64,000 nt of DNA, taken from assembly GCA_902791025.1 (NCBI GenBank), contig CADATZ010000006.1:2303-66302 (forward strand). The letters are read 5' to 3'. Below the pieces are notes generated by a model that worked only from the letters and a program-made list of their open reading frames with translations, ran no database searches and was not told the origin of the DNA. The stretch comes from an uncultured Chloroflexota bacterium. GTDB taxonomy: Bacteria > Chloroflexota > Anaerolineae > Anaerolineales > Anaerolineaceae. Each line of letters starts with the position of its first letter. Position 1 is the stretch's first letter. The position numbers and the translations under genes are program-made. Positions 11,648-53,564 of this stretch are shown here, piece after piece.

Positions 11648-11668
11648 ATTTTAGGATTTAGGCATCAG
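11648..11668. repeat. Heptamer array (3 units, attttag/gatttag/gcatcag); inverted partner of 11741-11817
   Basis: Period 7. The units are reverse complements of the ctaaaNN/ctgatgN units about 75 bp downstream. Confidence 0.45.
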
Positions 11669-11740
11669 GTACGGGCTGCAATGCAGAGGCATAGAACCAT
11701 ATATTAGAAAAAAAAGAAAAGCAAAAATCGCTTTCCTTTT

Positions 11741-11817
11741 TCTAAAGTCTAAAGTCTGATGTCTGATGTCTAATGTCTAATGTCTAACTTCCAACTTCTA
11801 ACTCCTGACTTCTAAAG
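11741..11817. repeat. Heptamer array, 11 units (tctaaag x2, tctgatg x2, tctaatg x2, tctaact, tccaact, tctaact, cctgact, tctaaag)
   Basis: Exact period 7. 10 of 11 units contain TAA or TGA. The stop and the last ~6 codons of the ABC ATPase gene lie inside the array. Confidence 0.9.
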
Positions 11818-13423
11818 CTCCTGTCCCGATGATCTTGCCGCTCTTGCGGTGGAAGAGGATGATGCTGTCGGATATGAAGTCCATGTTTACATAGGAGCCG
11901 ATGGTGAAAATTGTATTGCCGAACACCACACCGGTCAGAAGAAATTCACCCACACGGATCTTGACGGTCGATTCCATACCGGTCGGCATGGCACCGTAAA
12001 TTTCGCCTTCGATCTTCCCGCCGGAATGGATCGAGATGAATTCCGGGCGGACACCGATGACGAAATCCTCATCGGTCAAGATCGGTTCTTCCTGCATGGC
12101 GTCGTCTTCATCATTGACGCGTTGGATGTGGTATTTAAAGACCTCATCCTTGTTGTTCTTTTCCACATAATCCTTTGCTTTGGCACGTTCCCTCAGGTCA
12201 GCGGCATCTTTCTCGGTCTTTGCATTAAGGTCGGAGAGCCACTTTTTATAATCCGGGACATCCTTGCCGCTGAAGCGTACCTTTATCCCGTCAAGGATCG
12301 TCAGCTCAAATTCACCTTGTGCGTTCTGCGTTCCTTTTGCCTCAATGAAGTTGATGGAAGGGTTCCCGACAAAGTCCGCCACAAAGAGGTTGTTCGGGTG
12401 TCCGTAGACGGTGAGCGGGGGCTGATACTGCTGCAGCACACCGTTGTTGATGAGGCAGATGTTGGTGGAGAGCGTCATGGCTTCCATCTGGTCATGGGTC
12501 ACATAAACGAAAGTGGACCCGGTTTCCACATGCAGACGCTGCAGCTCATAGCGCATTTCCAGCCGCAGTTTTGCGTCCAGGTTGGAGAGCGGTTCATCCA
12601 TGAAGAGCACGGAAGGTTCCGGAGCCAGTGTACGGGCAATAGCAACACGCTGCTGCTGACCGCCGGAAAGTTCAGCCGGATAGCGGTCCATGAACATGGA
12701 GATCTTCACAATGCGGGAAACCCGGCGGACGGAGAGATCGATCTCTTCTTTCGTCAGCTTGCGGACCTCGCGGACAGTCTTGCCGCCTGAAGTGAATTCA
12801 TAATCCTTGTTCAGGTTATTGGCCTTGACAGCGGCCGCAGCCTTGTCTGCCAGGGCATTAGCTTCTCCCTTGAAGTCACCGCCGTTCTCAAGATGATAGC
12901 CGACCAGCTTTTTGGCGGTGAACTGGGAGATCGTAAAGGCGTCGATGAGCTTGATGACGGCTTTTTTCTCATTCAGTTTCCCGGATTTGTCTTTACATTC
13001 ATCCAAAACCTTTACAACATCCTGCGGATTGGAAAGGATCTCCGAGAGCCGCGCATTGTTCTTCGCCTCGAAATCTATCTTCGGCATTTCTTCTTTGATG
13101 TTGGAAAGACCGAAGGATATATTTTCATAAACGGTCATGTTCGGCCACAGCGCGTAGTTTTGGAACAGGAAGCCGACTTTCCGTTTGTTGGCAGGAATAT
13201 TGATCCCTTTCGAAGAATCAAAGACCACCCGGTCGCCGATAGTGATCTTCCCCGTGGTTGGGGTTTCAAGACCCGCGATCATACGCAGTGTGGTGGTCTT
13301 CCCACAGCCGGAAGGACCCAGCAGGGTCACGAACGCGTTATTGTCGATGACTAAGTTTAAATTATCAACGCCGTAAAAATTTCCCCAGCGTTTTGTAACA
13401 TTTTCCAATCTGATTTCGGGCAT
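11798..13423 (-). CDS. ABC importer ATP-binding protein (MalK/UgpC-like) with two large insertions
   Basis: GPSGCGKTT, LSGGQQQR and LFMDEPLSNLD motifs plus a TOBE-like C-terminus. It is 541 aa, against about 360-370 aa as I recall for this family. Confidence 0.85.
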   Translation of the reverse strand: MPEIRLENVTKRWGNFYGVDNLNLVIDNNAFVTLLGPSGCGKTTTLRMIAGLETPTTGKITIGDRVVFDSSKGINIPANKRKVGFLFQNYALWPNMTVYENISFGLSNIKEEMPKIDFEAKNNARLSEILSNPQDVVKVLDECKDKSGKLNEKKAVIKLIDAFTISQFTAKKLVGYHLENGGDFKGEANALADKAAAAVKANNLNKDYEFTSGGKTVREVRKLTKEEIDLSVRRVSRIVKISMFMDRYPAELSGGQQQRVAIARTLAPEPSVLFMDEPLSNLDAKLRLEMRYELQRLHVETGSTFVYVTHDQMEAMTLSTNICLINNGVLQQYQPPLTVYGHPNNLFVADFVGNPSINFIEAKGTQNAQGEFELTILDGIKVRFSGKDVPDYKKWLSDLNAKTEKDAADLRERAKAKDYVEKNNKDEVFKYHIQRVNDEDDAMQEEPILTDEDFVIGVRPEFISIHSGGKIEGEIYGAMPTGMESTVKIRVGEFLLTGVVFGNTIFTIGSYVNMDFISDSIILFHRKSGKIIGTGALEVRS

Positions 13424-13425
13424 GA

Positions 13426-15273
13426 TTAACCTCCAATTCCTTCATCCAGGCTTGCGCCGGTGACTTTATTCACAATAGCATTGAACACCAGAATGGTGAT
13501 GATCAGGATCAGGTTGATACCGCTTGAGAACGCGTACAACCCCATTTCGTCGAAATAATCCAATGTGGTGGAGAGGATGAACCCCTGCACGCACAGCAGC
13601 ATGAACAGGGAGAGTTCCCGCAGGCAGGTCATGAACGGCAGCAAATATCCGCTGATAATCGATGACTTCTGAATCGGGATAATGATGCGGGTCATGCGTT
13701 TGAACCAGGGAATATCCTGGATGATGGCAGCCTCTTCGATCTCGCCTGAAAGCTGAAGCATGGAGTTCAGCGCGGAGCGGGAGGCGAAGGGAATGTATTT
13801 CACTGTACCGACGATGATCAGGATCCAGTAGGTGTTGAAGAGGTTCAGCTTTTCACCGGAAAGCAGGATGAAGTAAGCCACGCCAACAGCGATGGAAGGC
13901 ATCAGGTAGGGCAGGAAGGCTACCGAGTTCACGTAGTTCGCCCACTTGCTGCGCCTGTTCTTGGAGACCGCGTAACCGACCAGCGTGCCGATAGTACCGG
14001 CGGTCAGCATACAGGCAACGCTGACGAGCAGCGTCCCGCCAAAGGCACGCCAGATGGTCTGGTTATGCAGAATACCCATCTGCCCATACAGACCGTTTTC
14101 TGTGACGTTTTCGGCAGTTGTCCACCACTTGGTCGTCAGGTTTTTGGGATCCCCTGTGTACAGGTAGGAGTAGTCGCCCGGGTTGGGCAGGAAGGTCTCA
14201 AAAGCGAAGGAGATGATCGGGAAGATACTGGTGAAGAAGGTGAGGATCACCAGGATCAGGGCGATGATGTAACGGCCGGATTTGCCGAGATTGATCTTGG
14301 AGATTTGTCCGGATTTCCCGGTTACGGTCGTATAGCTTTTGCGGGAGGTCAGGCTCATCTGGTTGACCAGCATGATCGCTACACCGAAGATCATCATGAT
14401 GATGGCGAGGATGGAAGCTTCACCGGTATATTTCGAGTTCATGGAAATATACTTGGTGGAGAGCGTAGTCAGACCGAGGTAGTGCGGGACCGGGTAGGAG
14501 CCCATGGCGGAGCCGAATACCAGCAGAATGGTGGAAAGGATCGCAGGTTTGACCATCGGCAGCGTTACGCGGGTCATGATCTTCCATTTCGGTGTGTCCA
14601 GAATGGTCGCTGCTTCTTCCAGATTGGCATCCATATTTTTGAAAATACCGCCGATCAGGATGTATGCGAACGGTGCGTAGTGCAGCCCCAGCACCACCAG
14701 GCTCGGGAAAAGTCCCTGACACCACCATTTGGGCATGGTTATGCCGAACAGCGAGGCTAACAGCCCGTTGGAAGTTCCTGTCACTTTGTTGGAGTTAAAA
14801 AGGTTCTGCCAGACGACCGCGAGCGTCCACTGCGGCATGATGTATGGAAAGATGAAGATCGAACTGATGTATTTTCGCCAGGCCATATTGGTCCTGGTGA
14901 TCAGAAAGGCTACGATCCCTCCAAATAAAATAGAAACCACACAGGTCCCGACAGCCAGATAGACCGTGTTCAGCAAAGGCGTCCAAAGGTTCTTTTTCGC
15001 GAGTTTGCTTGTGAACAGGTCCGTGTAGTTCATCACGGTGAATCCGCTGGTTCGGCCGCTGGCCTTTTTTTCAAGGTTGGCATCGATCGTCCCGGGATGG
15101 ATCGTAAAGGTGTCCCGTACGATCGCGACGATCGGCGCGACAGTTGTGATCGTCAAGATGATGCCGAAGAGCAGGAGAATCACATTCTGGGGCTTCGAAA
15201 AGTAGGTCTTGACCTTATTCATGTGGATCGTAAAGGCAGATACTTTCTGCGTGTCTTGCTGTACCATACGCAT
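13426..15273 (-). CDS. ABC importer permease, duplicated (two-module, about 12 TM) type
   Basis: 615 aa, polytopic, with two permease modules as in FbpB/ThiP-type proteins. The start could be the second ATG at 15267, which has better spacing to GGAG. Confidence 0.8.
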   Translation of the reverse strand: MRMVQQDTQKVSAFTIHMNKVKTYFSKPQNVILLLFGIILTITTVAPIVAIVRDTFTIHPGTIDANLEKKASGRTSGFTVMNYTDLFTSKLAKKNLWTPLLNTVYLAVGTCVVSILFGGIVAFLITRTNMAWRKYISSIFIFPYIMPQWTLAVVWQNLFNSNKVTGTSNGLLASLFGITMPKWWCQGLFPSLVVLGLHYAPFAYILIGGIFKNMDANLEEAATILDTPKWKIMTRVTLPMVKPAILSTILLVFGSAMGSYPVPHYLGLTTLSTKYISMNSKYTGEASILAIIMMIFGVAIMLVNQMSLTSRKSYTTVTGKSGQISKINLGKSGRYIIALILVILTFFTSIFPIISFAFETFLPNPGDYSYLYTGDPKNLTTKWWTTAENVTENGLYGQMGILHNQTIWRAFGGTLLVSVACMLTAGTIGTLVGYAVSKNRRSKWANYVNSVAFLPYLMPSIAVGVAYFILLSGEKLNLFNTYWILIIVGTVKYIPFASRSALNSMLQLSGEIEEAAIIQDIPWFKRMTRIIIPIQKSSIISGYLLPFMTCLRELSLFMLLCVQGFILSTTLDYFDEMGLYAFSSGINLILIITILVFNAIVNKVTGASLDEGIGG

Positions 15274-15284
15274 CTCCTTTTTTT

Positions 15285-15347
15285 AGTGAATAATGAATAG
15301 TGAATGGTGAATAGTGAATAATAATTAGTGAATGATGAAAAGTGAAA
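15285..15347. repeat. Heptamer array, 9 units (NNTGAAT type)
   Basis: agtgaat aatgaat agtgaat ggtgaat agtgaat aataatt agtgaat gatgaaa agtgaaa. Starts 12 nt upstream of the permease start codon. Confidence 0.9.
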
Positions 15348-15434
15348 AATTATAGTGCTGCTTTGCAGCTGTCATGAGTTCTGTTTGGTTGAGTGTCATC
15401 ATTCATTTGTTAAAGCCGCGGAGCGGCATCGATT

Positions 15435-15469
15435 TTATTCATTATTCATTATTCACTATTCATTTTTAT
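15435..15469. repeat. Heptamer array, 4-5 units (ttattca type); inverted partner of 15285-15347
   Basis: ttattca x3, ctattca, tttttat. Directly abuts IPE copy F. Confidence 0.8.
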
Positions 15470-15566
15470 CTATGCAGGACGGAGCACTTGGGGACTGGCA
15501 ACTTATGTTGCGAAGCCAACACGAGTGTGCCTGTCACCATGTGCGTCGCTGTGGGGTCTGAATAGA
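15468..15566 (-). repeat. IPE copy F (subfamily 2)
   Basis: tctatgcaggacggagcacttggggactggcaacttatgttgcgaagccaacacgagtgtgcctgtcaccatgtgcgtcgctgtggggtctgaatag. Lies inside the SBP-permease spacer of the ABC operon. Confidence 0.9.
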
Positions 15567-17718: not shown

Positions 17719-17766
17719 AATTTGTTTTATAATGCGGCTCGGTTGCCGGGCATCGCAATAATAGAA

Positions 17767-17790
17767 AAGGCCGCGGAATGCGGCCTTTCT
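17767..17790. terminator. Bidirectional terminator between the EIIB gene (+) and pnp (-)
   Basis: aaggccgc-ggaat-gcggcctt with T-rich flanks on both strands. Confidence 0.7.
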
Positions 17791-17791
17791 T

Positions 17792-17826
17792 TCTCTAATC
17801 TCTAATCTCAGAACTCTTATCTCTGA
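17792..17826. repeat. Heptamer array, 5 units (tctctaa x2, tctcaga, actctta, tctctga)
   Basis: Period 7. Spans the pnp stop codon (17817-17819). Confidence 0.7.
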
Positions 17827-20066
17827 GCTCTTTTATTACCGTTTCCGCGGCTGCCGTTCCCGTTGGAGCGGTTTCCGCCGGTGCCGTTTCCGCTGCGGCG
17901 GCCGCCGCCATTAGAACTGCCACCCTTGGAACCGCCGGCAGGTTTTTTCATATCGGCGGCCTGGGCTTCTTCCAGGGACCAGCCTTCCAGAACAGCCTGG
18001 CGGGAGAGACGGACTTTGCCGTTTTCGATGCCGGTGACCATTACGGTGAGTTCATCGCCGAGACTTACGACGTCTTCAACACTGTTGACGCGTTCGCTGT
18101 CCAGCTGGGAAATATGAACCATACCGTCAACACCGGGGAGAATTTCCACGAAAGCGCCGAAATCTGTGATGCGGACAACTTTGCCGGTGTAAATGTTGCC
18201 AAGAACCGGGGTCTCGATGAGGCCGAGGATCTGGTCGCGGGCAGTATCGGAATCGGCCTGGTTGGTAGCGGAGATGTAAATAAGACCGGTTTCTTCAATG
18301 TCGATCTTGGTGTTGGTGTCTTCCTGCAGCTGGCGGATGTTCTTGCCGCCGGGGCCGATGATAGCGCCGATCTTGTCGACCGGGATCTGAATCGTAGTGA
18401 TGCGCGGAACATGCGGTTTGAGTTCCGGACGCGGTGCCGGGATGGTTTCCAGGATCTTGCCAAGGATGAACTTGCGGGCTTCGTGAGCCTGAGCAAGAGC
18501 TTCGCGCATGATCTGCGGGGTGATGCCCTTGATCTTGATGTCCATCTGCAGGGCAGTGATACCCTGTTCGGTACCGGCAACCTTGAAATCCATGTCGCCG
18601 AGATGATCTTCCGCACCCTGAATATCAGTCAGGATCACGTAATTTTCACCTTCTTTGATCAAACCCATGGCGATACCGGTGACAGGAGCCTTGATCGGTA
18701 CACCGGCATCCATCAGAGCCAGTGTGGAACCGCAGACGGAACCCATGGAAGAGGAACCGTTGGAGCTCATCACTTCGGAGACCAGGCGGATGGTGTAGGG
18801 GAATTCTTCCTCGGACGGGATGACCGGGACGAGGGCACGTTCAGCCAATGCACCGTGCCCAATCTCGCGGCGGGACTGGCCGCCCACACGTTTGCACTCA
18901 CCGGTGCAGAACGGCGGGAAGTTGTAATGGTGCATGTAGCGCTTGTTTTCCTGTGGGGAAAGGGTATCGATTTCCTGTGCATCGCGCGGAGTACCGAGGG
19001 TAGCAAAGGTCAGAACCTGAGTTTCACCGCGGGTGAAGAGACCGGTACCGTGCGGACGCGGCAGAACATCGACCTTGGTCCAAATCGGACGGATTTCGGT
19101 CAGACCGCGGCCATCGGGGCGCAGATGACGGTCAAGGATGCGGCTGCGGACGACACGGCGGTAAGCTTCTTCAAAGCCTTCTGCGTAATCAGCTTTTTTG
19201 GTGTCATCTTCACCGGCGAATTCTTCAACGACCTGGGCTTTGAGCTGCTTGAGGTTGTCAGCCAGTTCGGCCTTGGTGTGCGGTTCGCTCATCATGTCGT
19301 CCATCGTCTGGCTGTATTTTTCTACAACTTCTTCAATAGCATCCTGGTCGAGGTTGAAGCGCGGAACTTCGCGCTTCGGTTTGCCGATGGCGGCAGCCAT
19401 TTCGTTCTGAATGGCGACCAGCGGCTGAATGGCTTTCTGCCCGAAAATCAGGGCTTCGACCATGTCTTCTTCAGAGATTTCTTTTGATCCGGCTTCGACC
19501 ATCAGAATGGCGTCAGCAGTACCTGCGATGCGCAGGTCGAGGTCGGATTTTTCGATTTCTTCATAGGTCGGGTTGGCAATCAGTTTGCCGTTGATGCGGC
19601 CGACGCGTACTGCGCCGACAGGACCGTCCCACGGAATATCGGAGATCATCAGGGAGGCGGAAGCTGCGTTGATGGCGATGATATCCAGCGGGTTGACGAA
19701 ATCAGCAGAAAGAGAGTAGAGGATCACCTGCACTTCATTGCGGATATCCTGGGAGAAGAGCGGACGAAGCGGACGATCGATGAGGCGGGATGTCAGAATG
19801 ACATCACCGGCGGGGCGTCCTTCACGGCGGAAGAATGAACCCGGAATGCGGCCGCCTGCGTAGAGGCGTTCTTCATATTCAACAGTGAGAGGAAAGAAAT
19901 CCTGTCCCTCTTTTGGTTCGGCACCCATGGTCGCCGCAGAAAACACGACGGAGTCACCGACACGAACAGTCACGGCACCGCCGGCCTGACCGGCGAGCAT
20001 ACCGCTTTCGAAAATGACGGTCTTGCCGTCAACTTCGGTAATAAATTGTTTTGCGTTTGGTTCCAT
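17817..20066 (-). CDS. pnp: Polyribonucleotide nucleotidyltransferase (PNPase) with Gly/Asn/Arg-rich C-terminal tail
   Basis: Two RNase PH domains, then KH and S1 ([28 protein letters not shown]). Start chosen at MEPNAKQF (ATG 20064-20066). Confidence 0.95.
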
Positions 20067-20145
20067 TATTATCCTGTCCCGGACTGCATAGGCAGTCCGT
20101 TGTGATCTCACAGGTCAGGAACTGAAGGAAAGCTGTTAGCTTTCA

Positions 20146-20217
20146 GTTGGTAGTTATTGGTTGATAGTTATTAGAAATTTGTAATTATCTACAAACCACC
20201 AACTAATAACTAACAAC
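20146..20217. repeat. Inverted pair of heptamer-like low-complexity arms (tagttat/tggttga vs aactaat/aactaac) forming a ~29-bp imperfect hairpin
   Basis: By hand alignment, the left arm 20146-20174 and the reverse complement of 20189-20217 match at 23 of 29 positions. Lies in the rpsO-pnp spacer. Confidence 0.7.
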
Positions 20218-20361
20218 TTTCTTTCAATGCCCGACCGCTGTGAGTTTGTGCAATGTTTTATATTATTCAGGATGTTTTCATGGGTTCTTGAATGTTCATG
20301 GGATTCGGAATCTTTTTTCTGACCCCTGCTCCCTGAATCCTGACACCTTTACATCCCAAAT

Positions 20362-20907: not shown

Positions 20908-22989
20908 TTATGAATTCAACTCCTCCGTCAGCATGCAGATCAGCGGCCAGGTGCCTGCCTTCATCATCAGGATGATCACCATACTGTGACGGGCCAGTTC
21001 GTATTCGTCGGCGATAAAGACGCCGGTACTCAGAATGTAGGCGGAGAAGATGAAAAGCAGCGGGAAGGCATAACGTTCACCGTCTTTTCTTCGGAAAGCT
21101 ATCCAAATCCCTGCCAAACCCAGACCGAAAATCAAAACGCCGGGCAGATTGCAGGAGAAAAATTTAACGAAAGGATCCGGCAGCAGATGAGCAAAGCCGG
21201 AAGGTGTATAGATGTAGCCGATTTGCTCAAAGGCTTCTTTCTCAAATCCTTCATACCAGGTCATGCGCAGTGTCTCGAATGGGATATGCAGCATATAGCG
21301 GATATAGGTTTTCAGTCCATCAGAAAGGATCCATTCACGCAGCGGTGTGAACGCTTCAGAGTTGAACAGTTCCGATCCCATCATGTGTTCTACACCGTAC
21401 AGCTCCTCGATCCGCTCCGGTGTGGGCATTTCGGCCTGAAGAAAGAATTGTTCTCCCTGCGGATCTCTCAGGATGCGGTTGAAGAGTACGTTTTCAAAGG
21501 GATACTGCCATCTTCCGCCGGTATTTCCCATCACAGACCAGCAGACAACGGCTAAAACCGCACACAGGAGGAAGATCACTTTCCGCTCATTCCGCAGCCT
21601 GTTGAGGCAGAGCAGCAGTACTATGATCAGGATCACGATCCATGCGGCGGAATCGCGGGATTGGGCATAAAACAGGGCACCGGCAGCGGTACAGAGAGCC
21701 GGCAGCGGATTCCATTTGTTTTCAGGATTTGGCCGCATCAGCCAAAAGCAGCTGCCCATCAGCAGCATCGCCGCGGCAATGGAAAGGGATTCACTCATGA
21801 TAACCTGATCCCAGCGGGTAACGTTCGGAATACAACCCAGTCCCAGGGTGAGGATGATCACAGCCTTTTTTCGGCTGTCTTTCCGGCAGATCGCGGCTGC
21901 GTGCCAGGCAAAAAATCCCCAGCAGAGAATGGATATGACCAGTTGTGCGATAGTGATGGCGGTTGGGTCCTGCCGGCAAAGTTTATAAATCAGCGGAATA
22001 AATGCCGGGCGGGCAATGCAGTACCAGAATTGTTGGTGGCAGTAAGGTGTTCCGCGCAGAATATCCATGATCGGCATTTCGGACATGCCGAGATAGGATT
22101 CCGAATCCACAAAAAAGAGCGGTTCTTTGACAGTCAAAAACTGGATCACGCGGAAAATGGTGAAGCAGAGGAATGCGCCAAGCATAAATCCCTTGGCGCT
22201 CCATCCGGGGAGCAGCTTGAATGCGGCAATGGTTCCGGCAAGGCAGAGCAGGAAGCTGATCAGCCAGACGGCGAGAAATTCCGGCAGTCCGTTGGAAGGC
22301 GGAAATGCGATGTCAAAGCTCAGCCGGTTCATGTCTGTATTGTTGAGCGGTGCGGTCTGTGTCAATCCACCATTACGGATCTCTGCGATTCCCTGATTCT
22401 CATCAGAGACGAATTCAATGGTGAGCGTACCGCTGATGATGCCGCTCCAGCTCAGTTCGCTGTTTTCGTCTGTCAGCGTGATTCCATATTCATCAGGGAT
22501 GCAGTTTCCGGAGCATTGAACGGAACTGAGAGGAATATCTCTTCCGTTATGGTGGAGCCAGGTGAGTGTTATCGGACGAATTTCGCCGGTCTCATCCGGA
22601 AGTGCCCGGATCGTCAGGTCGTGCGGGCTGTACAGTCCGGTATTCGGTACGGGAAACCAGACGATCATGCACACAGAGGTGATCAGCGTGATTAAAATGA
22701 CCGGGAGCCATTCCCTTTTTGTCAGGCTTTGGATTGCCTTGAGAAGCAGGAAATACAGCAGCGCAAAGAATGTCCCTCCCGCCAGTGCAGAGGCCGCCAG
22801 CCGGACAGTAAGTCCTTTCGCGGTATAAGGAGCCAGCTGCAGCCTTTCGCAATAATAAATGAAAGAACAACAGACAGCTCCGATCAAGGAAGCAATCAAT
22901 ATAAATAACTTAAAGGGGACAGATTTAGATGAAAATCCGCCTTTCTCACTCCTGACTCCCGACACCTGACTCCTAACTTCTAACTTCAA
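20908..22989 (-). CDS. Large polytopic membrane protein, possibly a GT-C-fold glycosyltransferase
   Basis: More than 12 TM segments and an FFVDSESY loop reminiscent of ArnT/PMT-type enzymes. The track start is a TTG inside a heptamer array, so the true start is unresolved. Confidence 0.55.
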   Translation of the reverse strand: MKLEVRSQVSGVRSEKGGFSSKSVPFKLFILIASLIGAVCCSFIYYCERLQLAPYTAKGLTVRLAASALAGGTFFALLYFLLLKAIQSLTKREWLPVILITLITSVCMIVWFPVPNTGLYSPHDLTIRALPDETGEIRPITLTWLHHNGRDIPLSSVQCSGNCIPDEYGITLTDENSELSWSGIISGTLTIEFVSDENQGIAEIRNGGLTQTAPLNNTDMNRLSFDIAFPPSNGLPEFLAVWLISFLLCLAGTIAAFKLLPGWSAKGFMLGAFLCFTIFRVIQFLTVKEPLFFVDSESYLGMSEMPIMDILRGTPYCHQQFWYCIARPAFIPLIYKLCRQDPTAITIAQLVISILCWGFFAWHAAAICRKDSRKKAVIILTLGLGCIPNVTRWDQVIMSESLSIAAAMLLMGSCFWLMRPNPENKWNPLPALCTAAGALFYAQSRDSAAWIVILIIVLLLCLNRLRNERKVIFLLCAVLAVVCWSVMGNTGGRWQYPFENVLFNRILRDPQGEQFFLQAEMPTPERIEELYGVEHMMGSELFNSEAFTPLREWILSDGLKTYIRYMLHIPFETLRMTWYEGFEKEAFEQIGYIYTPSGFAHLLPDPFVKFFSCNLPGVLIFGLGLAGIWIAFRRKDGERYAFPLLFIFSAYILSTGVFIADEYELARHSMVIILMMKAGTWPLICMLTEELNS

Positions 22990-23083
22990 ACTTCAAACTT
23001 CAAACTTCAAACTTCTAACTTCTAACTTCAAACTTCAAACTTCTAACTTCTAACTTCTAACTTCTTACTTCCTAAACCTAATT
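22951..23083. repeat. Heptamer array, 19 units (tc[ta]aact core)
   Basis: cctgact cccgaca cctgact cctaact, then tctaact/tcaaact x12, tcttact, tcctaaa, cctaatt. On the coding (-) strand the core units read agttaga/agtttga, containing TAG or TGA. Confidence 0.95.
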
Positions 23084-23641
23084 ATTAAACGTCATATCCC
23101 GTCCCGGGTACTCTGTCTGCTTTTTCCAGGTTTGGAATAAATTCCGGTAGCCTTTGCTGATACGGTCCTCCCAGTTCAATCCCAGCAGTTCCGCAGCGCG
23201 GCGAATGGCGAGGTCATCGGGGCCTTCGATTTCGATATAGTCGCCGATGGGTGTATGGTCCAGGAAGAGCTGCGTATCATCCAGACGGTAGATGCTCCGG
23301 TATTTTTCATAAATAAAGACGATTTGATATCCGAGCCGTTCCAGGATCAGACGGGTATTGTCAAAATCGGTGACAACCGTTTCGATTTCTTCCCGGTCGG
23401 CAATGCCTTTGTTGTTTTGTTTTTCGGATTTATACGTCAGCACGGAGGTTCCGCCGTTATCACGAAGGCGCAGTACCTGGTGCGTTTTTGTTAAGGTTTC
23501 CTCTGCATCATCCCAGCGCAGGTTCTTTTCAAAACGGGTCTCCTGCTCTAAAACCGCTCCCGCTTTCAAAATAATATCCAGCATTTCTTCTGTGGAAGAA
23601 ATTTTGAACTTCACTTCAATTTCCCGGTTATCTATGTTCAT
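23078..23641 (-). CDS. CYTH-domain protein (class IV adenylyl cyclase / triphosphate tunnel metalloenzyme family)
   Basis: 187 aa. N-terminal EIEVKF (ExExK signature), and the size and pattern fit the CyaB/ThTPase fold. Confidence 0.75.
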   Translation of the reverse strand: MNIDNREIEVKFKISSTEEMLDIILKAGAVLEQETRFEKNLRWDDAEETLTKTHQVLRLRDNGGTSVLTYKSEKQNNKGIADREEIETVVTDFDNTRLILERLGYQIVFIYEKYRSIYRLDDTQLFLDHTPIGDYIEIEGPDDLAIRRAAELLGLNWEDRISKGYRNLFQTWKKQTEYPGRDMTFNN

Positions 23642-23654
23642 TATTCATTATTCA
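23634..23654. repeat. Heptamer array, 3 units (atgttca ttattca ttattca)
   Basis: Overlaps the CYTH start codon (23639-23641). IPE copy H starts 10 nt further on. Confidence 0.5.
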
Positions 23655-23663
23655 TTTCTATAT

Positions 23664-27024: not shown

Positions 27025-27037
27025 TTCCCTAAATTTT

Positions 27038-28539: not shown

Positions 28540-29663
28540 TGGCTGCAAAATCCAAAAGCTTATCCGATCAGAAAAAGTCTGCTTCTTTCCTGACACATCT
28601 TGTCCTGATCATCCTTTGTTTGATCTGGTTCATTCCGGTGTTTGGTGTGTTTGTTACTTCATTCCGTAATTCCACGAACGTTTTCAACAGTGGATGGTGG
28701 CATGTATTCCCGCATAAAGAATGGGTGGAAACCGGTGAAATCAAGGTTGATGCCGATGCGGACCTGAACGGTGATATCACCGTGACTCTTCCGAATGGGA
28801 AAGAAGTTACCGGTACCTTTGATACATTGAAAAGCGGTGTGACAGTGAATGGTACGAAAGTTCAGTGGTATGGTGCGAAACGTACCCGTACGCTGAAGAC
28901 CTATGAAAGCAAATGGGTCGGCTTTGAAAGCAACCTGACGCTTGAAAACTATAACAACGTGCTGACCGGTAAGAAGATCCAGTACACCGGTGAAAACGGT
29001 GAAACCCTGACCCGCAACGGTTCTGACCTGAGTTCTTCATTCCTGAACTCCATCACGGTTACCGTCCCGGCTACGATCATTCCGATTTTGATTGCGGCCT
29101 TTGCGGCGTATGGCTTTGCCTGGCTGAACTTCCCGGGCCGGAAGCTGTTCTTCTCCATGGTTGTGGCGATGATGGTCGTTCCGCTGCAGATTGCAATCGT
29201 GCCTGTGCTGAGTGACCTCTCCAAGGTTGGCCTTTCCGGTCAGTATCTGGGTATCTGGATGGCACATACCGGTTTCGGTCTGCCGCTGGCGATTTATCTG
29301 CTGTTCAACTACATCAGCACGATCCCGCGGGAAATCCTGGAATCCGCTTTCATTGACGGTGCATCCAACTTCACGATTTTTACCCGCCTGATCCTGCCGC
29401 TTTCTGTTCCGTCCATCGCTTCCTTCGGTATTTTCCAGTTCCTGTGGGTCTGGAATGACTATCTGGTATCTCTGGTCATCCTGGGCGGCGGTCAGAAGAT
29501 GGTCATCACGCAGTCACTGGCGAACATCGTCGGTACCCGCGGTCAGGACTGGCACCTGCTCACTGCCGGTGCGTTCGTCTCCATGATCGTCCCGCTCATC
29601 GTCTTCCTGAGCCTGCAGCGTTACTTCGTCCGCGGTATGATGGCCGGTTCCGTGAAGGGATAG
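28539..29663 (+). CDS. Sugar ABC transporter permease (MalG-like) with enlarged extracytoplasmic loop
   Basis: ESAFIDGASNFTIFTRLILP EAA loop. ATGA overlap with the upstream stop. About 130 aa lie between TM1 and TM2. Confidence 0.85.
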   Translation: MAAKSKSLSDQKKSASFLTHLVLIILCLIWFIPVFGVFVTSFRNSTNVFNSGWWHVFPHKEWVETGEIKVDADADLNGDITVTLPNGKEVTGTFDTLKSGVTVNGTKVQWYGAKRTRTLKTYESKWVGFESNLTLENYNNVLTGKKIQYTGENGETLTRNGSDLSSSFLNSITVTVPATIIPILIAAFAAYGFAWLNFPGRKLFFSMVVAMMVVPLQIAIVPVLSDLSKVGLSGQYLGIWMAHTGFGLPLAIYLLFNYISTIPREILESAFIDGASNFTIFTRLILPLSVPSIASFGIFQFLWVWNDYLVSLVILGGGQKMVITQSLANIVGTRGQDWHLLTAGAFVSMIVPLIVFLSLQRYFVRGMMAGSVKG

Positions 29664-29695
29664 TAATTAGTTTTAAGTTGTAAGTTATAAGTTAT
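29661..29695. repeat. Heptamer array, 5 units (tagtaat tagtttt aagttgt aagttat aagttat)
   Basis: The first unit begins with the TAG stop of the MalG-like gene. A terminator hairpin follows. Confidence 0.7.
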
Positions 29696-29698
29696 AAG

Positions 29699-31027: not shown

Positions 31028-32641
31028 ATGGACAAAACACCCTGGTATATGAACGCATACTTTTATCAGATCTATCCACGATCTTTCATGGATGGAAACG
31101 GTGATGGTTACGGCGATTTTGTCGGCATTACGCAAAAACTGGACTATCTGAAATCCCTCGGGATCGACTGTATCTGGATCCAGCCGATTTATCCTTCCCC
31201 GATGTTCGATGATGGGTATGATATCAGTGACTTTGTGAACGTGGACCCGCGTTTCGGCACATTGGAAGAATATCATCAGCTGATCGACGCGGTCCATGCG
31301 CATGGTATGAAGATCATCATGGACCTGGTGATGAATCACTGTTCCAGCGAGCATCCCTGGTTCCAGGCGGCACGCAAAGACCGCAATTCTAAATACCGCG
31401 ACTATTTTGTCTGGTCTGATACCGATCAAAAATATCTCGAGACCCGCATCATCTTCACTGATACGCAGAAATCCAACTGGGCATGGGATGAGGTCGCCGG
31501 ACAATATTACTGGCATCGCTTCTACCCACAGCAGCCGGATCTGAATTTTGACAATCCGGAAGTCCAGGAGGCGATGCTGAACGTCATGCGCCACTGGATG
31601 GATCTTGGCATCGATGGTTTCCGTGCGGATGCGGTTCCCTATCTTTTTGAACGGGACGGCATGGAAAATGAAAACCTGCCGGAAACGCACGAATTTCTGA
31701 AGCGCTGCCGCAAGCTGATGGATGAGGAATATCCTGGTGCGGTGCTGCTCTGTGAAGCGAACATGTGGCCGAAGGAAGTTCGTCCCTATTTTGCGGATGG
31801 GGATGAATTCCAGCTTGGCTTCCATTTCCCGTTGATGCCGCGCATTTTCATGTCCCTTGGGAAGCAGAATGCCGAATCTCTGGTGAAGATCCTCAAGGAT
31901 ACACCAGACATTCCCGAAAACTGCCAGTGGTGCACCTTCCTGCGCAACCATGATGAACTGACCCTGGAGATGGTGACGGAAGAAGACCGCCAGTGGATGT
32001 GGAACTTCTACGCTCCGGATCCGGAAATGCGCAAGAATCTCGGTATCCGCCGCCGCCTCTGGCCGCTTCTGGACAATGATCCGAAGAAGGTAGCACTCGC
32101 TTATTCTATGATGCTCACCATGCCCGGTTCCCCGGTCTTCTATTATGGAGATGAGATCGGTATGGGTGATGATATCCGCCTTTATGACCGCAACGGTGTC
32201 CGCACGCTGATGCAGTGGGATGACACAAAGAACGGCGGTTTTTCAACAGCTGATAAGACTTGCATGCCGGTGATCGATGATCCGGTTTACGGGTATAAAC
32301 AGGTCAATGTCGCTTCTCAGGAGGGTGATCCGAATTCCCATCTGAACATGATCCGCAGTCTGATGTCCACCCGCAAAGCCTCAGACGCGCTTTGCCGCGG
32401 CAAGCTGAAATGGCTTGTGGATGGAGAAAATATTCCGGTTCTTGCGTATATCCGTGAAAGCGAGTATGATAAGGTATGGGTCCTTCAGAACATGACGGAC
32501 AATGAGCAGAGCTTTACTCTGGATCTTCAGGAAGGAACATATTACGATCTGAATCATCCCGAATTTGAAATTCAGGGAAGCTCAAAAACTGAAATAAAAA
32601 TTGCTCCGCGTTCATTTTACTGGCTGCGGAAGAAAAACTGA
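31028..32641 (+). CDS. treS: GH13 trehalose synthase / maltose alpha-D-glucosyltransferase-like enzyme
   Basis: DGNGDGYGDF, QPDLNFDNPEV, GFRADAVPYL, FHFPLMPRIF and FLRNHDELTLEMV are strings typical of TreS. Confidence 0.75.
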   Translation: MDKTPWYMNAYFYQIYPRSFMDGNGDGYGDFVGITQKLDYLKSLGIDCIWIQPIYPSPMFDDGYDISDFVNVDPRFGTLEEYHQLIDAVHAHGMKIIMDLVMNHCSSEHPWFQAARKDRNSKYRDYFVWSDTDQKYLETRIIFTDTQKSNWAWDEVAGQYYWHRFYPQQPDLNFDNPEVQEAMLNVMRHWMDLGIDGFRADAVPYLFERDGMENENLPETHEFLKRCRKLMDEEYPGAVLLCEANMWPKEVRPYFADGDEFQLGFHFPLMPRIFMSLGKQNAESLVKILKDTPDIPENCQWCTFLRNHDELTLEMVTEEDRQWMWNFYAPDPEMRKNLGIRRRLWPLLDNDPKKVALAYSMMLTMPGSPVFYYGDEIGMGDDIRLYDRNGVRTLMQWDDTKNGGFSTADKTCMPVIDDPVYGYKQVNVASQEGDPNSHLNMIRSLMSTRKASDALCRGKLKWLVDGENIPVLAYIRESEYDKVWVLQNMTDNEQSFTLDLQEGTYYDLNHPEFEIQGSSKTEIKIAPRSFYWLRKKN

Positions 32642-32673
32642 TAGCTACCAGCGAATAGCTGATAGCTGACTTG
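32639..32673. repeat. Heptamer array, 5 units (tgatagc taccagc gaatagc tgatagc tgacttg)
   Basis: Begins with the TGA stop of the treS-like gene and ends at the RBS of the amylosucrase-like gene. Confidence 0.7.
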
Positions 32674-44358: not shown

Positions 44359-44427
44359 GGTATGGAAGCGGGTAAATGGCCCGGTGAGTCGTTCGTAAGG
44401 AAAAAGTTGCATAATATTAACATTTTT

Positions 44428-44553
44428 CTCCTAACTCCTGTCTCCTATCACCTAATTCCTAACCAACTTCTAACCAACCAACTACTAACTACTAACTACC
44501 AACTACTAATCAACTACTAACTACCAACCCCTAACCCCTAAGCCCTAACAAAC
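44428..44553. repeat. Heptamer array, 18 units with drifting flavour (ctcctaa -> actaact -> aacccct)
   Basis: One continuous period-7 phase by hand count. TAA occurs in most units. Lies upstream of the SBP_3/NBR1-like gene. Confidence 0.9.
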
Positions 44554-44617
44554 CTCCTCTCCCCTGCCTGTTCTCTGAAATCTGAATTAATCCGCTGAAC
44601 TATTTTTTAAGGTTTTA

Positions 44618-47887: not shown

Positions 47888-47895
47888 GAAAAGGG

Positions 47896-47958
47896 ACCAG
47901 TGGTCAGGGGCCAGGGTCAGTCAGTGGTCAGTGTCCCCTGGTTAGTGGACAGGGAGAC
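47896..47958. repeat. Heptamer-phased GC-richer array (gtcaggg gccaggg tcagtca gtggtca gtgtccc ctggtta gtggaca)
   Basis: Period 7 is maintained over about 9 units. Starts 9 nt after the obg stop. Partially self-complementary (ccagggg/cccctgg). Confidence 0.6.
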
Positions 47959-50229: not shown

Positions 50230-52184
50230 CGCGTTTTTCGCTGATAACACAGTCCATCCGCGACCTTGGCCTTTTGCCTGTACTGCGCAATGGCTGCTAT
50301 CAGGTTTTGCTGAAAAGCGGGATCTACCGGACAATCATGCCTCACAGACCGCTCCGGAAGGAAACCGTGCGCGGGGAATTCCGTCCGCTGCCGCTGCCGG
50401 ATATGGAGCAGCTTGGCCCGTATCTCTCTGCTGATTCCGCCCGTATCTTTGAAGAAAAAGAACTGATTTCCCGCGGGGAATATCATCCCTTTGGCAGTAA
50501 AAAGAATCTGCCTTTGGATTTGAATCCGGTAAACGGGAGCCGTCATTGGGCAACGGATCACAAGATCCCGGTCCCGGATTTAAAATTGATCTGGGAAGGT
50601 GCCAGGTTCTGCTGGGTCGATGCCTTGGTGCGGAACGAAGCGCTGACTCGCAGCGGCTTATCTGAAGCCTGCTTTTGGGATAAACTGGAAGAATTCAATC
50701 AGAAGAATCCGGTCAATCTGGGCGAAAATTGGGAGTCTGCACAGGAAGTTGGTCTGCGGCTGATCAATATTGCTTTTGCCGCAAGCGTTTTTCTGCAGCT
50801 GCCCAAGAGTGACAGCATTTATTTTTCAACCGCAAGGCATAATGAATTGATCCGTGAACGCACCGATCTGGCTGCCCGAACTATCCAGGCCCATGCTAAG
50901 CGGATCCCGAAAACATTGATTTATGCCAAATCTCAGCGGAATAACCATTTACTCAGCGAGGCTGCTGCACTGATGACCGCCGCTGTTGTTCTGCCGGAAG
51001 CTAATGAAGCCGGCCGCTGGTGGCGGCTGGGCAGAGATAATTTCTTCAGCGGACTGGACGATCAGCTTGCGCCGAACGGTTGTTATATTCAGCACTCTGC
51101 CAATTACCACCGTCTGATGATTCAGCTTGTGGTATGGGTGGACCGGCTGCTGCGTATCAAGTGCGAGAGCTGGCCAAAGAAGCTTATCCCAAAACTGCGG
51201 AACTCGATCCGTTTTCTTTATGATTTCTGCGACCCGGTCAATGGAAAATGCAGCAATATCGGGCATAATGATGGCACACTGCTGTTTTGTTTCGGGAGTG
51301 AGTATGAGGATTACAGCCCTACGCTGCAGGCAGCCGGTCAAATCTTTTTGGGTCGGAAGCTGTTTGCGGATGGACCGCGGGATGAACTGGGTATTTGGCT
51401 GAACGTTGAGCGGCGTTACCTCTATCAGTCTGATGAGGAACAGGATGAGGCTTATAGCGGTCCGCTTTCCGTTGGGAAAGGGCGCATGAAGGCATTGATG
51501 CTTTCAGAGCCTTTCATCGGCAGACCAGCGCATGATGACCGTCTGCATCTGGATGTCTGGATCAATGGCGTCAATGAACTTTGCGACGCGGGAACCTACC
51601 GCTATTCTGATTTGGAAGGCTGGGATAACCGGCTCAAATACGCCGTGACGCATAATGTGATGACGGTTGACCATCAGGAGCCGATGAGGGATGCGGGGAA
51701 GTTCCTGTGGCTGGAACCGGATGAAGCGAAGGTTCTTTCCCGCAATGAGGCTTACATCAGCGCGGAGCATAACGGATTCCGTTCATTGAACCTCAAACAC
51801 CGCAGGACCGTTCGCCCGATCGGGAATGGTTTTTCAGTGGCGGATGATGTGATCCCGCTGGAAAAGGAAGCGGATACGGAACATGTTTACCGTTTTCACT
51901 GGCTGCTGCCGAATCAATCGTTTAAATACAAAAAGGGCATACTGGTCCTGGACCGGATCCGCATGGGATTCAGCAGCGATTTTTCTTTCAATCTGCGCAT
52001 CGTTCGGGCGGGATACTGCATATTTAACAGCGGTGAGGAGACTGGGGAAAAGGATTTCCGTGAGGATCAGCGCTGCGGATGGTATTCACCAACGTACAAT
52101 GAAAAGGAACCCGCACTTTCCATCATTGTCACCTGCAAGGGGCAGGCGCCGTTTCATTTCGATACGCTGATTACGAAATTGTAG
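50226..52184 (+). CDS. Heparinase II/III-like (alginate-lyase-fold) family protein
   Basis: 652 aa. NNHLLSEAAAL...HSANYHRLMIQ resembles the toroid N/H/Y catalytic region of this family. ATGA overlap with the upstream gene. Confidence 0.55.
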   Translation: MTRFSLITQSIRDLGLLPVLRNGCYQVLLKSGIYRTIMPHRPLRKETVRGEFRPLPLPDMEQLGPYLSADSARIFEEKELISRGEYHPFGSKKNLPLDLNPVNGSRHWATDHKIPVPDLKLIWEGARFCWVDALVRNEALTRSGLSEACFWDKLEEFNQKNPVNLGENWESAQEVGLRLINIAFAASVFLQLPKSDSIYFSTARHNELIRERTDLAARTIQAHAKRIPKTLIYAKSQRNNHLLSEAAALMTAAVVLPEANEAGRWWRLGRDNFFSGLDDQLAPNGCYIQHSANYHRLMIQLVVWVDRLLRIKCESWPKKLIPKLRNSIRFLYDFCDPVNGKCSNIGHNDGTLLFCFGSEYEDYSPTLQAAGQIFLGRKLFADGPRDELGIWLNVERRYLYQSDEEQDEAYSGPLSVGKGRMKALMLSEPFIGRPAHDDRLHLDVWINGVNELCDAGTYRYSDLEGWDNRLKYAVTHNVMTVDHQEPMRDAGKFLWLEPDEAKVLSRNEAYISAEHNGFRSLNLKHRRTVRPIGNGFSVADDVIPLEKEADTEHVYRFHWLLPNQSFKYKKGILVLDRIRMGFSSDFSFNLRIVRAGYCIFNSGEETGEKDFREDQRCGWYSPTYNEKEPALSIIVTCKGQAPFHFDTLITKL

Positions 52185-52223
52185 GTATTAGGTATTAGGT
52201 ATTAGGTTTTAGGGGATGGTGAT
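52182..52223. repeat. Heptamer array, 6 units (taggtat x3, taggttt, tagggga, tggtgat)
   Basis: The first TAG is the stop of the heparinase-like gene, and the array ends exactly at ATG 52224 of the GT4 gene. Five consecutive TAGs cover all three frames. Confidence 0.9.
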
Positions 52224-53429
52224 ATGCATATTTTGTTGATTCACCAGGCGTTTGTTACTACCGGGGAGGCCGGGGGAACGAGGCATATTGAGTTTTCCCG
52301 CCGACTGGCTGCACGGGGCCACCGGGTGACCATCATCACCAGTCCGGTCAGTTACCTGAGCGGGGAAAGCAGCCTTACCGGCCATTTTCTGTGGAAAAAA
52401 GAACAGTGGGCGGAAAATATTGAGATCCGTTATTGCTGGACGAGCTCCGGGATGCATAAGGGATTTGTTCCGCGCCTGCTGGCTTTCTTTTCCTTCATGT
52501 TTTCCTCGTTTTTCTGTGCGCTGAACGTGAAAGACGTGGATCTCGTCTGGGGAACTTCGCCAAATCTATTTCAGGGCTGGACGGCCTGGCTGAGCGCAAG
52601 GCTGAAGCGCAAGCCCTTCCTGCTGGAGATTCGGGATCTCTGGCCGGAGTTCGCTATTGCCATGGGTGCGCTGCGAAATCCGCTGCTCATCCGCATGTCG
52701 CAGTGGCTGGAGCGGTTCCTCTATAATCACGCGGACCGCATCATTGTGAATTCACCGGGGTTTATCCCATATATCCGTGATATTTGCGGAAAGACACCGA
52801 ATCTGGTTCCGAATGGCGCGGATGAGCGTATGTTTGAAGGTGCGGACGGAACTGCTTTCCGCGAAGAACATGGCCTGGGGGATGATTTCGTGGTTATGTA
52901 CAGCGGCGCGCACGGTCCGGCGAATGACCTGGAAACGGTGCTGAATGCGGCGGAGATACTGCGGGATCATGCCGGTATCCGCTTTGTTTTTGTGGGGAGC
53001 GGAAAGGATAAAGCCCGCCTTGAAACGATAAAGGCGGAAAAAAAGCTTGACAACGTGTTGTTTGTCCCGCCTGTCCCGAAGGACCGGATCGCTTCCGTGA
53101 TGGCGGCAGAGGATGCGGGTTTGGCGATCCTGAAAAAACTGGATATGTTCAAAACTACTTATCCAAACAAAGTCTTTGACATCATGGCTTGCGGTGATCC
53201 GGTGATTTGTCAGATCGATGGCGTGATCCGCGAGGTGGTTGAGGAAAATCAGGCGGGGATTTTTGTCGAACCGGGTGATGCTCAGGCGTTGGCTGATGCT
53301 GTGCTGCGTTTAGCAAAAGATCCTGAAGCCTGCCGGAAAATGGGCGAAAATGGCCGCAGGGCGATCATGGAGAAGTTCAATCGCGACAAAGCGGCGGAAC
53401 AGTTGGAAGAAATCTTTATTAAATTGTAA
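52224..53429 (+). CDS. Glycosyltransferase family 4 (WbuB-like)
   Basis: MHILLIHQAF...GEAGGTRHIEFSRRLAARGHRVTIIT N-terminus and a GT-B C-terminal E-x7-E-type region. Confidence 0.7.
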   Translation: MHILLIHQAFVTTGEAGGTRHIEFSRRLAARGHRVTIITSPVSYLSGESSLTGHFLWKKEQWAENIEIRYCWTSSGMHKGFVPRLLAFFSFMFSSFFCALNVKDVDLVWGTSPNLFQGWTAWLSARLKRKPFLLEIRDLWPEFAIAMGALRNPLLIRMSQWLERFLYNHADRIIVNSPGFIPYIRDICGKTPNLVPNGADERMFEGADGTAFREEHGLGDDFVVMYSGAHGPANDLETVLNAAEILRDHAGIRFVFVGSGKDKARLETIKAEKKLDNVLFVPPVPKDRIASVMAAEDAGLAILKKLDMFKTTYPNKVFDIMACGDPVICQIDGVIREVVEENQAGIFVEPGDAQALADAVLRLAKDPEACRKMGENGRRAIMEKFNRDKAAEQLEEIFIKL

Positions 53430-53433
53430 CTGA

Positions 53434-53527
53434 TCAGAACCCACAGCGACGCACATGGGGACAGGCACACTTGTGCGGGCTGCTCCGCACAAGATGCCAG
53501 TCCCCACGTGCTCCGTTCTGAATAGAT
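53434..53527 (+). repeat. IPE copy N (near-consensus)
   Basis: tcagaacccacagcgacgcacatggggacaggcacacttgtgcgggctgctccgcacaagatgccagtccccacgtgctccgttctgaatagat. Confidence 0.95.
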
Positions 53528-53536
53528 ACATTAAAT

Positions 53537-53564
53537 TAGTGAATAATGAATGGTGAATAGTGAA
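53537..53564. repeat. Heptamer array, 4 units (tagtgaa taatgaa tggtgaa tagtgaa)
   Basis: Lies 10 nt after IPE copy N and 15 nt before the DDAH start. Confidence 0.7.

Follow-up and report, generated by a model that had tools for sequence, protein, structure and literature searches.

The 64-kb stretch of contig CADATZ010000006.1 analyzed here (assembly GCA_902791025.1, positions 2,303 to 66,302; hereafter the window) carries ∼20 arrays of degenerate tandem heptanucleotides, which together occupy ∼840 bp, or 1.3% of its length. The arrays are real and far beyond chance. They are distinguished by their period, by their location at gene boundaries, by a T-Y-A-G core shared across arrays of different unit sequence (flavor), by a constant polarity relative to the mRNA, by the predicted folding of those that occur as inverted pairs, by differences in length between strains that equal or approximate multiples of 7, and by their restriction to one lineage among the host's relatives. 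We consider it probable that they are simple sequence repeats (SSRs) made by slippage, filtered by selection within transcribed spacers and sometimes co-opted as the arms of RNA hairpins.

The host is an uncultured rumen member of the Anaerolineaceae near Flexilinea, a Chloroflexota of filamentous type. Proteins identical to those of the window are found on rumen metagenome contigs, and the nearest named PNPases belong to Anaerolineaceae, with Flexilinea at 75% identity; an earlier note on this DNA, made from the letters alone, had already judged its gene content not to be cyanobacterial. The genes of the window are ordinary, and include PNPase, Obg, sugar ABC transporters, amylases and an mraZ cell-division cluster. 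Close relatives were gathered by a protein homologue search and from the contigs encoding those homologues.

Period 7 stands alone in this DNA. A strict X-drop autocorrelation detector returned 10 arrays of period 7, none of periods 4–6 or 8–11 and one of period 12, and a lenient detector returned 14 of period 7, 15 of period 14 and 0–4 for each other period from 3 to 13, so that, when non-multiple periods are compared, 7 is the sole over-represented short period in the window, as expected of long SSRs. Tandem Repeats Finder (TRF) placed period-7 arrays at or beside all 15 main coordinates of the earlier note, which had claimed at least that number, and also at 8030 and 11059, close to two of its four weaker candidates (near 8021 and 11056); the remaining two, near 20789 and 39388, hold no period-7 array. 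Higher-order repeats of period 14 and period 28 were also reported by TRF, a pattern that slippage by blocks of several units would give. Units are degenerate in the arrays at 32639 and 47896, and the longest array, at 22945–23071, comprises ∼18 units.

Arrays of up to ∼120 nt are base-identical across 4–6 independent assemblies, made from different samples with different assemblers, and are not assembly artefacts. Three short-read Logan contigs (L173, L174 and L175, at their 5′ ends) all stop within the 18-unit array, so its copy number is the least certain of the set, and long heptamer arrays evidently fragment metagenome-assembled genomes (MAGs) of this lineage. These broken contigs are what an explanation by misassembly or chance periodicity can draw on. 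The recurrence of the same arrays in independent assemblies, the unique enrichment of period 7 and the presence of orthologous arrays in a strain at 91–95% nucleotide identity leave that explanation next to no credibility.

The arrays occupy a narrow set of positions relative to genes. Although 88% of the window is coding, all ∼20 lie outside long open reading frames (ORFs) or overlap only their last codons. Fifteen arrays follow a gene of the same direction. The stop codon of that gene is overlapped by the array, or marks its start, in 7 of them, against 1.3 under uniform placement (P<5e-5), and 11 lie no more than 10 nt from it, against 4.1 (P<5e-5); the placement at gene boundaries described in the earlier note is thus borne out. 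Three layouts recur. The stop codon may be followed by the array and then by an intrinsic-terminator-like hairpin (pnp, 17832 to 17765; ABC ATPase gene, 11817 to ∼11700). Alternatively, the array fills a short intercistronic spacer (32639, 52182, 22945), or it reaches to the ribosome-binding site of the next gene (15284, 44427, 52182, 53537), in two cases with the last unit itself serving as that site (TAGGAGA in 44427 and TAGGGGA in 52182). Arrays that begin with the stop codon of the upstream gene (29661, 32639, 52182) and arrays that run up to the next ribosome-binding site or ATG were likewise seen where the note had described them.

The same note took the conserved core of the units to be a stop trinucleotide, and this holds in part. 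A stop is present on at least one strand in 18 of 20 consensus units, well above the 10.4 expected from random intergenic 7-mers (P=2e-4). However, permutation of the bases within units, the composition-matched comparison that the note had proposed, gives nearly as many (16.1, P=0.19), and generic stop content is therefore mostly compositional. Stops on both strands occur in 9 of the 20 (4.0 expected, P=0.008). The excess lies in one trinucleotide: TAG/CTA is found in 14 of 20 units, against 5.8 expected, a count reached by 0 of 2000 within-unit permutations, and it remains in excess when sister-species arrays are added (16 of 29 versus 8.2, P=0.001). No other trinucleotide is strongly enriched among the consensus units. 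Per base, TAG/CTA is ten times denser in arrays than in the remainder of the window (0.082 versus 0.0084), where TAG is the rarest stop trinucleotide.

When 25 independent unit consensuses were aligned without supervision, free to rotate and to change strand, the alignment converged on antisense N-C-T-R-A-Y-N, that is, T-Y-A-G on the sense strand, with a score of 149.9 (null 134.9 ± 4.9). Inside arrays, T and C replace each other freely as the first base of the triplet (TAGACAT/CAGACAT, GTTAGG/GTCAGG), so the stop reading is not the most conserved feature, and the "stop core" is better described as a T-Y-A-G core of the sense strand. Two arrays, 8030 and 47892, have a consensus stop on neither strand; in a full reading of 47892 it is the sense strand alone that is without a stop. 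The related claim, that consecutive units place a stop in every reading frame, is true for the sense strand of 11 of 18 window arrays or arms, with the other 7 falling short; on the antisense strand all three frames are closed in 7 of 18.

Polarity, on which the earlier note had not remarked, is the second property shared by arrays of different flavor. Of the 15 independent unpaired arrays, 14 have more G than C on the mRNA-sense strand (11 of 12 after spacers of ambiguous direction are dropped). That strand often contains no C at all, and is C-rich in only one unpaired array, that at 8030–8047. In each of the four inverted pairs, the arm that is rich in G and carries TAG lies 5′. The rule is the same for the minus-strand genes at 7–24 kb and the plus-strand genes at 24–64 kb, while GC skew is positive throughout, and polarity therefore tracks transcription rather than replication. 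It fails in arrays of Herpetosiphon and of a "Megasphaera" MAG, which makes it a property of this lineage and not of heptamer arrays generally. The primase DnaG prefers CTA/CTG, a preference that the antisense core C-T-R-A recalls; we rejected primase initiation sites as an account of the arrays, since polarity follows gene direction under constant GC skew.

Several arrays face their own complement across a spacer, and three of the four inverted pairs fold significantly better than shuffled sequences, with z-scores from −3.8 to −8.0 (Table 1). The proposal that such pairs can form long hairpins is therefore upheld for these three; the pair at 27030–27145 is predicted to form a long stem that scores little better than its shuffles (z only −1.2). 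Single arrays are predicted to be unstructured, or to fold without significance. The pair between rpsO and pnp is the most informative. A hairpin follows the rpsO terminator in six Anaerolineaceae genomes, and its base is conserved among them (GGUCGGG.CAUUGAAA / UUUCAGU.CCUGACC). This hairpin measures 62 nt in a relative at 71% PNPase identity, 116 nt in one at 79% and ∼121–147 nt in the array-bearing genus, where its distal arms are heptamer arrays of a different flavor in each species (TAGTTAT, GTGGTCA, TAGTCAG). The base is kept in relatives without arrays, and the arrays extend it. Judged by this comparison, at least one inverted pair appears to have been built into a pre-existing, putatively regulatory hairpin. 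Of the roles in mRNA structure that the earlier note had entertained, those of inverted pairs gain support from the folding scores and the conserved leader base, whereas single arrays offer no predicted structure.

Comparison with a syntenic sister strain (loci L170/L171; 91–95% nucleotide identity) showed arrays in every orthologous spacer compared. In the comparison of unit number and flavor that the earlier note had proposed for related strains, several of them differ. The 15284 array is 28 nt (4 units) longer in the window than in L170, the 11741 array is ∼20 nt longer and the 22945 spacer ∼65 nt longer with a different flavor (both near, rather than exact, multiples of 7), and the 29661 array differs in flavor and unit number. 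Changes of length by units between related genomes (28 and ∼20 nt, and ∼65 nt with a change of flavor) are the signature expected of slippage. The pnp leader, the pnp 3′ end and 27038–27138 are nearly unchanged in L170.

Loci of the genus (L167–L170) contain 2–6 arrays per 22 kb, and other species of the genus (PNPase identity 93–97%) contain 2–4 per 22 kb. None was detected in 22-kb samples of relatives at 79% and 71% PNPase identity, nor in most other Anaerolineae loci. Period-7 arrays reappear in Herpetosiphon llansteffanensis (L049; lenient detector, 12 arrays in 22 kb), in another Anaerolineaceae MAG (L056) and in the "Megasphaera" MAG (L053), a patchy recurrence in unrelated genomes that matches the scattered spread published for heptamer SSRs (PMC4679880, PMC4692102, PMC6749651). 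In these three genomes the arrays form dense clusters, often as nested inverted pairs within one spacer (L056 5320–5482, GAGGACT ... CCTCAGT).

A probable course of events is as follows. Replication slippage that operates in this genus with a 7-nt register would create and resize the arrays, often by 14- or 28-nt blocks; we infer it because array lengths differ between strains by multiples of 7 or nearly so, because higher-order repeats are present and because the arrays are restricted to the lineage. Inverted pairs probably arise, and stay complementary, by intrastrand (quasi-palindrome) template switching. Selection would eliminate any array that falls in a reading frame, a terminator or a ribosome-binding site and, because a 7-nt unit cannot fit a reading frame, arrays would survive only in untranslated transcribed spacers: from stop codon to terminator, from cistron to cistron and from leader to ribosome-binding site. 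The orientation that survives would mainly be the one placing the C-poor T-Y-A-G strand in the mRNA, through selection against C-rich, G-poor, unstructured mRNA tracts, perhaps for their resemblance to Rho loading sites. As the C-poor strand is unstructured in prediction and carries stops in every frame, an array could abut or supply a stop codon harmlessly. An array flanked by its own complement would give a long RNA hairpin, and at least one such pair may have been co-opted into the regulatory hairpin of the pnp leader.

Several points weigh against this account. A core shared across ∼25 arrays, together with a near-absolute polarity, exceeds the order that purely neutral slippage would be expected to produce, and could instead reflect a sequence-specific function, such as a protein-binding site. 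The pnp leader, the pnp 3′ end and 27038–27138 are conserved between strains as well as or better than their flanking genes. Slippage, template switching, the selective filter and Rho avoidance are all inferred. Moreover, array orientation was set by the flanking genes, with the nearest gene used in three spacers, gene calls are ORF-based, and the sample is small, consisting of one 64-kb window and a few 22-kb loci.

Among other explanations, the one with the most in its favor, though we think it unlikely, is that the arrays have been selected to act as translational insulators or as landing pads, the former as the earlier note had also suggested: a sense UAG, UAA or UGA every 7 nt would halt ribosomes in all frames at cistron boundaries, and an unstructured purine/U-rich tract resembling a ribosome-binding site (TAGGAGA, TAGGGGA) would keep the next start accessible. 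Sense polarity is compatible with this, as are the larger number of arrays with three-frame stops in sense than in antisense, the arrays that start at real stop codons or extend to ribosome-binding sites, and the unstructured state predicted for single arrays; the same idea has been put forward for TAACTGA repeats (PMC4679880). Specific support is nevertheless lacking in the stop content itself, which is what unit composition predicts; TAG-to-CAG variants are common in arrays, and two arrays are without a consensus stop. In addition, the arrays at 11741 and 17788 sit between stop codon and terminator with no downstream cistron to insulate, half of the array sequence is locked in hairpins, and relatives without arrays carry the same genes. 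The periodic core could alternatively be read by a protein. We regard it as improbable that the arrays are (U/C)AG-N4 RNA operators for a ring-shaped, multimeric protein of HutP-like geometry, which would recognize NAG triplets 4 nt apart and control termination, processing or translation at hundreds of boundaries, as a genome-wide post-transcriptional regulon in which inverted pairs would act as switchable hairpins. The geometry is shared exactly, with NAG triplets at 7-nt spacing on the transcript, a sense T-Y-A-G core, four variable positions and U or C as the first base (PMC2425495). However, the best 120 listed homologues of B. subtilis HutP are all of Bacillaceae type, tblastn gave no match to HutP or TRAP homologues in the ∼100 kb of this species examined, and arrays of up to 18 units with hairpin-buried arms are unlike 3+3 operator sites. 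As the heptamer arrays of other lineages have quite different cores, a common mutational origin is the more economical explanation.

Slippage could also be put to use, with changes in unit number switching the expression of neighboring genes. Such contingency (phase-variation) loci, likewise raised in the earlier note, would account for the differences of 28, ∼20 and ∼65 nt between sister strains and for arrays in 5′ untranslated regions and beside ribosome-binding sites. Their neighbors, however, are housekeeping and metabolic genes (pnp, obg, ABC transporters, amylases, glycosyltransferases), rather than the surface, virulence or restriction genes associated with phase variation; many arrays lie in 3′ untranslated regions; and arrays are identical in the 4–6 assemblies from different samples, these being consensus assemblies in which minor variants are invisible. 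The length changes stand, and we consider the switching role very improbable. Even less probable is spread by a mobile element, for which the candidate is a REP-like palindrome family that shares spacers with arrays. Between 5 and 6 of its 12 copies share a spacer with an array, and two species share the flavor TAGACAT / TAGACGT at sites that are not orthologous, but a rough count puts ∼4.5 co-occurrences down to a common preference for long spacers, most arrays have no element nearby, and flavors are mostly locus-specific. Neither are the arrays themselves palindromes of REP/BIME type, which are dispersed units of ∼35–100 nt; they are tandem 7-mers. We retain slippage-made SSRs under selective filtering as the probable explanation.

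Table 1. Heptanucleotide arrays of the window and predicted folds of array regions. Strand is that of transcription; dG values are in kcal/mol and z-scores are relative to shuffles.
Position	Strand	Array or feature	Context or predicted fold
8030..8047	-	AGGATAC x2.6	Between two minus-strand genes, 10 nt past stop of 8058-10400
11059..11075	.	AGGATGT x2.4	Long non-coding stretch
11648..11670	-	Degenerate C-rich 3′ arm, sense CCTGATGCCTAAATCCTAAAAT	Pairs with 11741 array
11741..11817	-	11 units, sense TAGACAT, CAGACAT, TAGAAGT	Includes stop codon of ABC ATPase gene 11798-13423; terminator-like hairpin follows at ~11700-11735
11645-11790	-	Inverted pair	Predicted dG -35.6, z -3.8
15284..15350	-	3′ arm, sense TTCACTA, TTCATTA; period-14 and period-28 higher-order structure	10 nt from start codon, beside ribosome-binding site of gene 13426-15273
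15435..15473	-	5′ arm, sense TGAATAA, TGAATAG	Of hairpin 15275-15480
15275-15480	-	Inverted pair	Predicted dG -54.7, z -7.7
17788..17832	-	Sense GAGATAA / GAGATTA units	Contains pnp stop codon 17817-17819; directly before intrinsic-terminator-like hairpin 17765-17789
20146..20218	-	Both arms of rpsO-pnp leader hairpin; 5′ arm TAGTTAT (sense) 20200-20218, 3′ arm AATAACT 20146-20172	
20120-20240	-	Inverted pair	Predicted dG -43.8, z -8.0
22945..23071	-	~18 units, sense AAGTTAG, AAGTTTG, then GAGTCAG-type	Between CYTH gene stop (6 nt off) and next gene
22940-23080		Single array	Predicted dG -14.1, not significant
23637..23656	-	Sense TAATGAA x3	Includes CYTH start codon; 2 units in L170
27038..27138	+	TAGGGAA-type arm 27038-27091 and complement CCCTAAT 27112-27138	Between solute-binding-protein and permease genes; ends 7 nt ahead of start at 27145
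27030-27145	+	Inverted pair, long stem	Predicted dG -32.3, z -1.2
29661..29698	+	TAGTAAT TAGTTTT TAAGTTG-type units	Begins with TAG stop codon of permease gene
32639..32673	+	Degenerate TGATAGC units	Begins with TGA stop of first amylase gene; fills 29-nt spacer to next gene
44427..44549	-	Three-flavor block, plus strand TCTCCTA, AACTACT, AACCCCT; sense TAGGAGA, AGTAGTT, AGGGGTT	Last unit supplies ribosome-binding site of minus-strand gene 43962-44423
44420-44560		Single array	Predicted dG 0, unstructured
47892..47933	+	Degenerate CAGTGGT / CAGGGGC, one indel	4 nt past obg stop
52182..52213	+	TAGGTAT x4.6	Begins with TAG stop of heparinase-like gene; runs into TAGGGGA (ribosome-binding site), ATG at 52224
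52175-52225		Single array	Predicted dG -2.2, unstructured
53537..53564	+	TAGTGAA / TAATGAA / TGGTGAA x4	Ends 14 nt ahead of DDAH-like gene start, just upstream of ribosome-binding site; adjoins REP-like palindrome

The REP-like family consists of imperfect REP/MITE-like palindromes of ∼100 nt, with 12 intergenic copies in the 64 kb (3825–3873, 6638–6686, 7108–7156, 10804–10881, 11566–11614, 15490–15538, 23689–23737, 39313–39361, 42959–43007, 44300–44348, 53457–53505 and 54378–54426). Their core is GGGGACTGGCA...TGCCAGTCCCC within GCAC(A/G)T...A(C/T)GTGC, and CTGAATAGATAC is often present at one end. The L170 copy between the PadR and CYTH genes bears a nested insertion of ∼50 nt. Two copies, three heptamer arrays and a terminator-like hairpin lie within 10400–11797, an unusually long (∼1.4 kb) AT-rich stretch without a convincing ORF, which may be a source of small RNAs or a region in decay.

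Repeats of other periods fall within or at the ends of genes. The 3′ end of pnp holds a period-15 repeat at 17839–17893 (CCGTTTCCGCCGGTG x3.7). PNPase thereby acquires a repetitive tail at its C terminus, the length of which varies among relatives (proteins of 741–781 amino acids). At 30528–30600, in-frame 12- and 36-nt repeats (GTGAAGCTCGCG x6) lie in the ORF 29807–30736, in a region rearranged relative to L170. A perfect 24-nt tandem duplication (TTCGAGGCCTGTTTTTTGAAAATA x2) at 5618–5666 is just inside the predicted GTG-started ORF 5599–6591, and an 18-nt repeat is present three times at 46410–46463, in the 3′ end of a gene with SBP_bac_3 and N_BRCA1_IG domains. Gene order also differs between the strains: L170 19022–22250 is rearranged with respect to window 30153–33038 and 11298, so that in L170 the amylase region directly follows the ABC-transporter region. 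The block of GGDEF/HD genes at 8–10.4 kb of the window is missing from that position in L170.

Heptanucleotide arrays are among the commonest bacterial repeats and among the least understood. Here an array-bearing genus stands beside close relatives without arrays, with a measurable polarity, a T-Y-A-G core and pnp-leader arms that differ from species to species. This natural experiment makes it testable whether the 7-nt register is mutational or a selected RNA feature, and how complementary arrays stay paired. The transcription-linked polarity and the heptamer-built leader arms merit genome-wide follow-up. In practical terms, short-read assemblies of these rumen MAGs break at arrays longer than ∼100 nt.

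The E. coli rpsO-pnp leader contains a hairpin processed by RNase III. Here too a long stem-loop is predicted at the matching position, after the rpsO terminator and before pnp begins, but its heptamer-built distal stem is specific to this Anaerolineaceae genus. In the Bacillus hut leader, XAG motifs recur at 7-nt intervals in the arrangement (XAG-N4)3, and HutP recognizes their A and G whatever the sequence of the spacers (PMC2425495); the likeness to the present arrays, NAG triplets at a 7-nt period on RNA with free spacer bases, is purely geometric, and the hut leader is one regulated site of 3+3 motifs flanking a terminator. Units resembling the telomeric TTAGGG type (27112, 44526) we regard as a coincidence of flavor, many other flavors being present.

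The closest counterparts are the long SSRs of prokaryotes, in which heptamers are the commonest unit and polymerase slippage has been blamed (Mrazek, Guo and Shah 2007, as related in PMC4679880 and PMC4692102). As in the present arrays, units of 5–11 nt, with 7 favored, are there repeated in tandem, mostly in non-coding DNA, and they are strongly over-represented in genomes scattered across the phylogeny. In contrast, a T-Y-A-G core and sense polarity common to many flavors are not given as general features of the class in these papers, nor is the class known to have been described for Anaerolineae, and a literature search found no report tying heptamer repeats to Anaerolineae or Herpetosiphon. 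The STRR repeats of heterocystous cyanobacteria (Calothrix/Nostoc; cited in PMC4692102), which the earlier note had offered as precedent, are of the same kind, with several tandem heptamers per genome, in non-coding DNA of a filamentous host. Their units CCCCAGT, TTGGTCA and CAACAGT have no tandem copy in the window, the host here is a member of the Chloroflexota, and closer descriptions exist.

The TAACTGA repeats of marine Beggiatoaceae are intergenic, point toward start codons, give three-frame stops when forward and sometimes overlap the upstream stop codon (PMC4679880). The present arrays are likewise intergenic, with an orientation toward start codons, three-frame stops and overlap of the upstream stop codon, but the Beggiatoaceae repeat is one fixed unit in 2–6 copies, as against many flavors and up to 18 units here, and TAACTGA itself occurs in the window as 6 single copies, none in tandem. 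The Xanthomonas GGGAATC repeats, and Nostoc GGGGAYT, lie between co-directional ORFs and, on the sense strand, no farther than ∼50 bp from stop codons; they often form convergent inverted pairs capable of stem-loops, are transcribed, and vary in length between related species (PMC4692102). Inverted pairs, proximity to stop codons, co-directional ORFs and length variation between relatives are all shared with our arrays. The Xanthomonas and Nostoc repeats form G-quadruplexes; here only 27110–27135, on the minus strand, has the at least four consecutive tracts of three or more G that would qualify, and all other arrays, being without G-tracts, were rejected as members of that class. Within the phylum, Chloroflexus aurantiacus has 22 (GATAGRA)n satellites (PMC6749651), which are also heptamers with a TAG core on the purine-rich strand, scattered through the genome. 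They form a single family, in contrast to the many flavors found here, and tandem GATAGAA or GATAGGA is absent from the window. The arrays described here belong to the same class as the STRR, Beggiatoaceae TAACTGA, Xanthomonas GGGAATC and Chloroflexus GATAGRA repeats, and are a new example of it in a new lineage.

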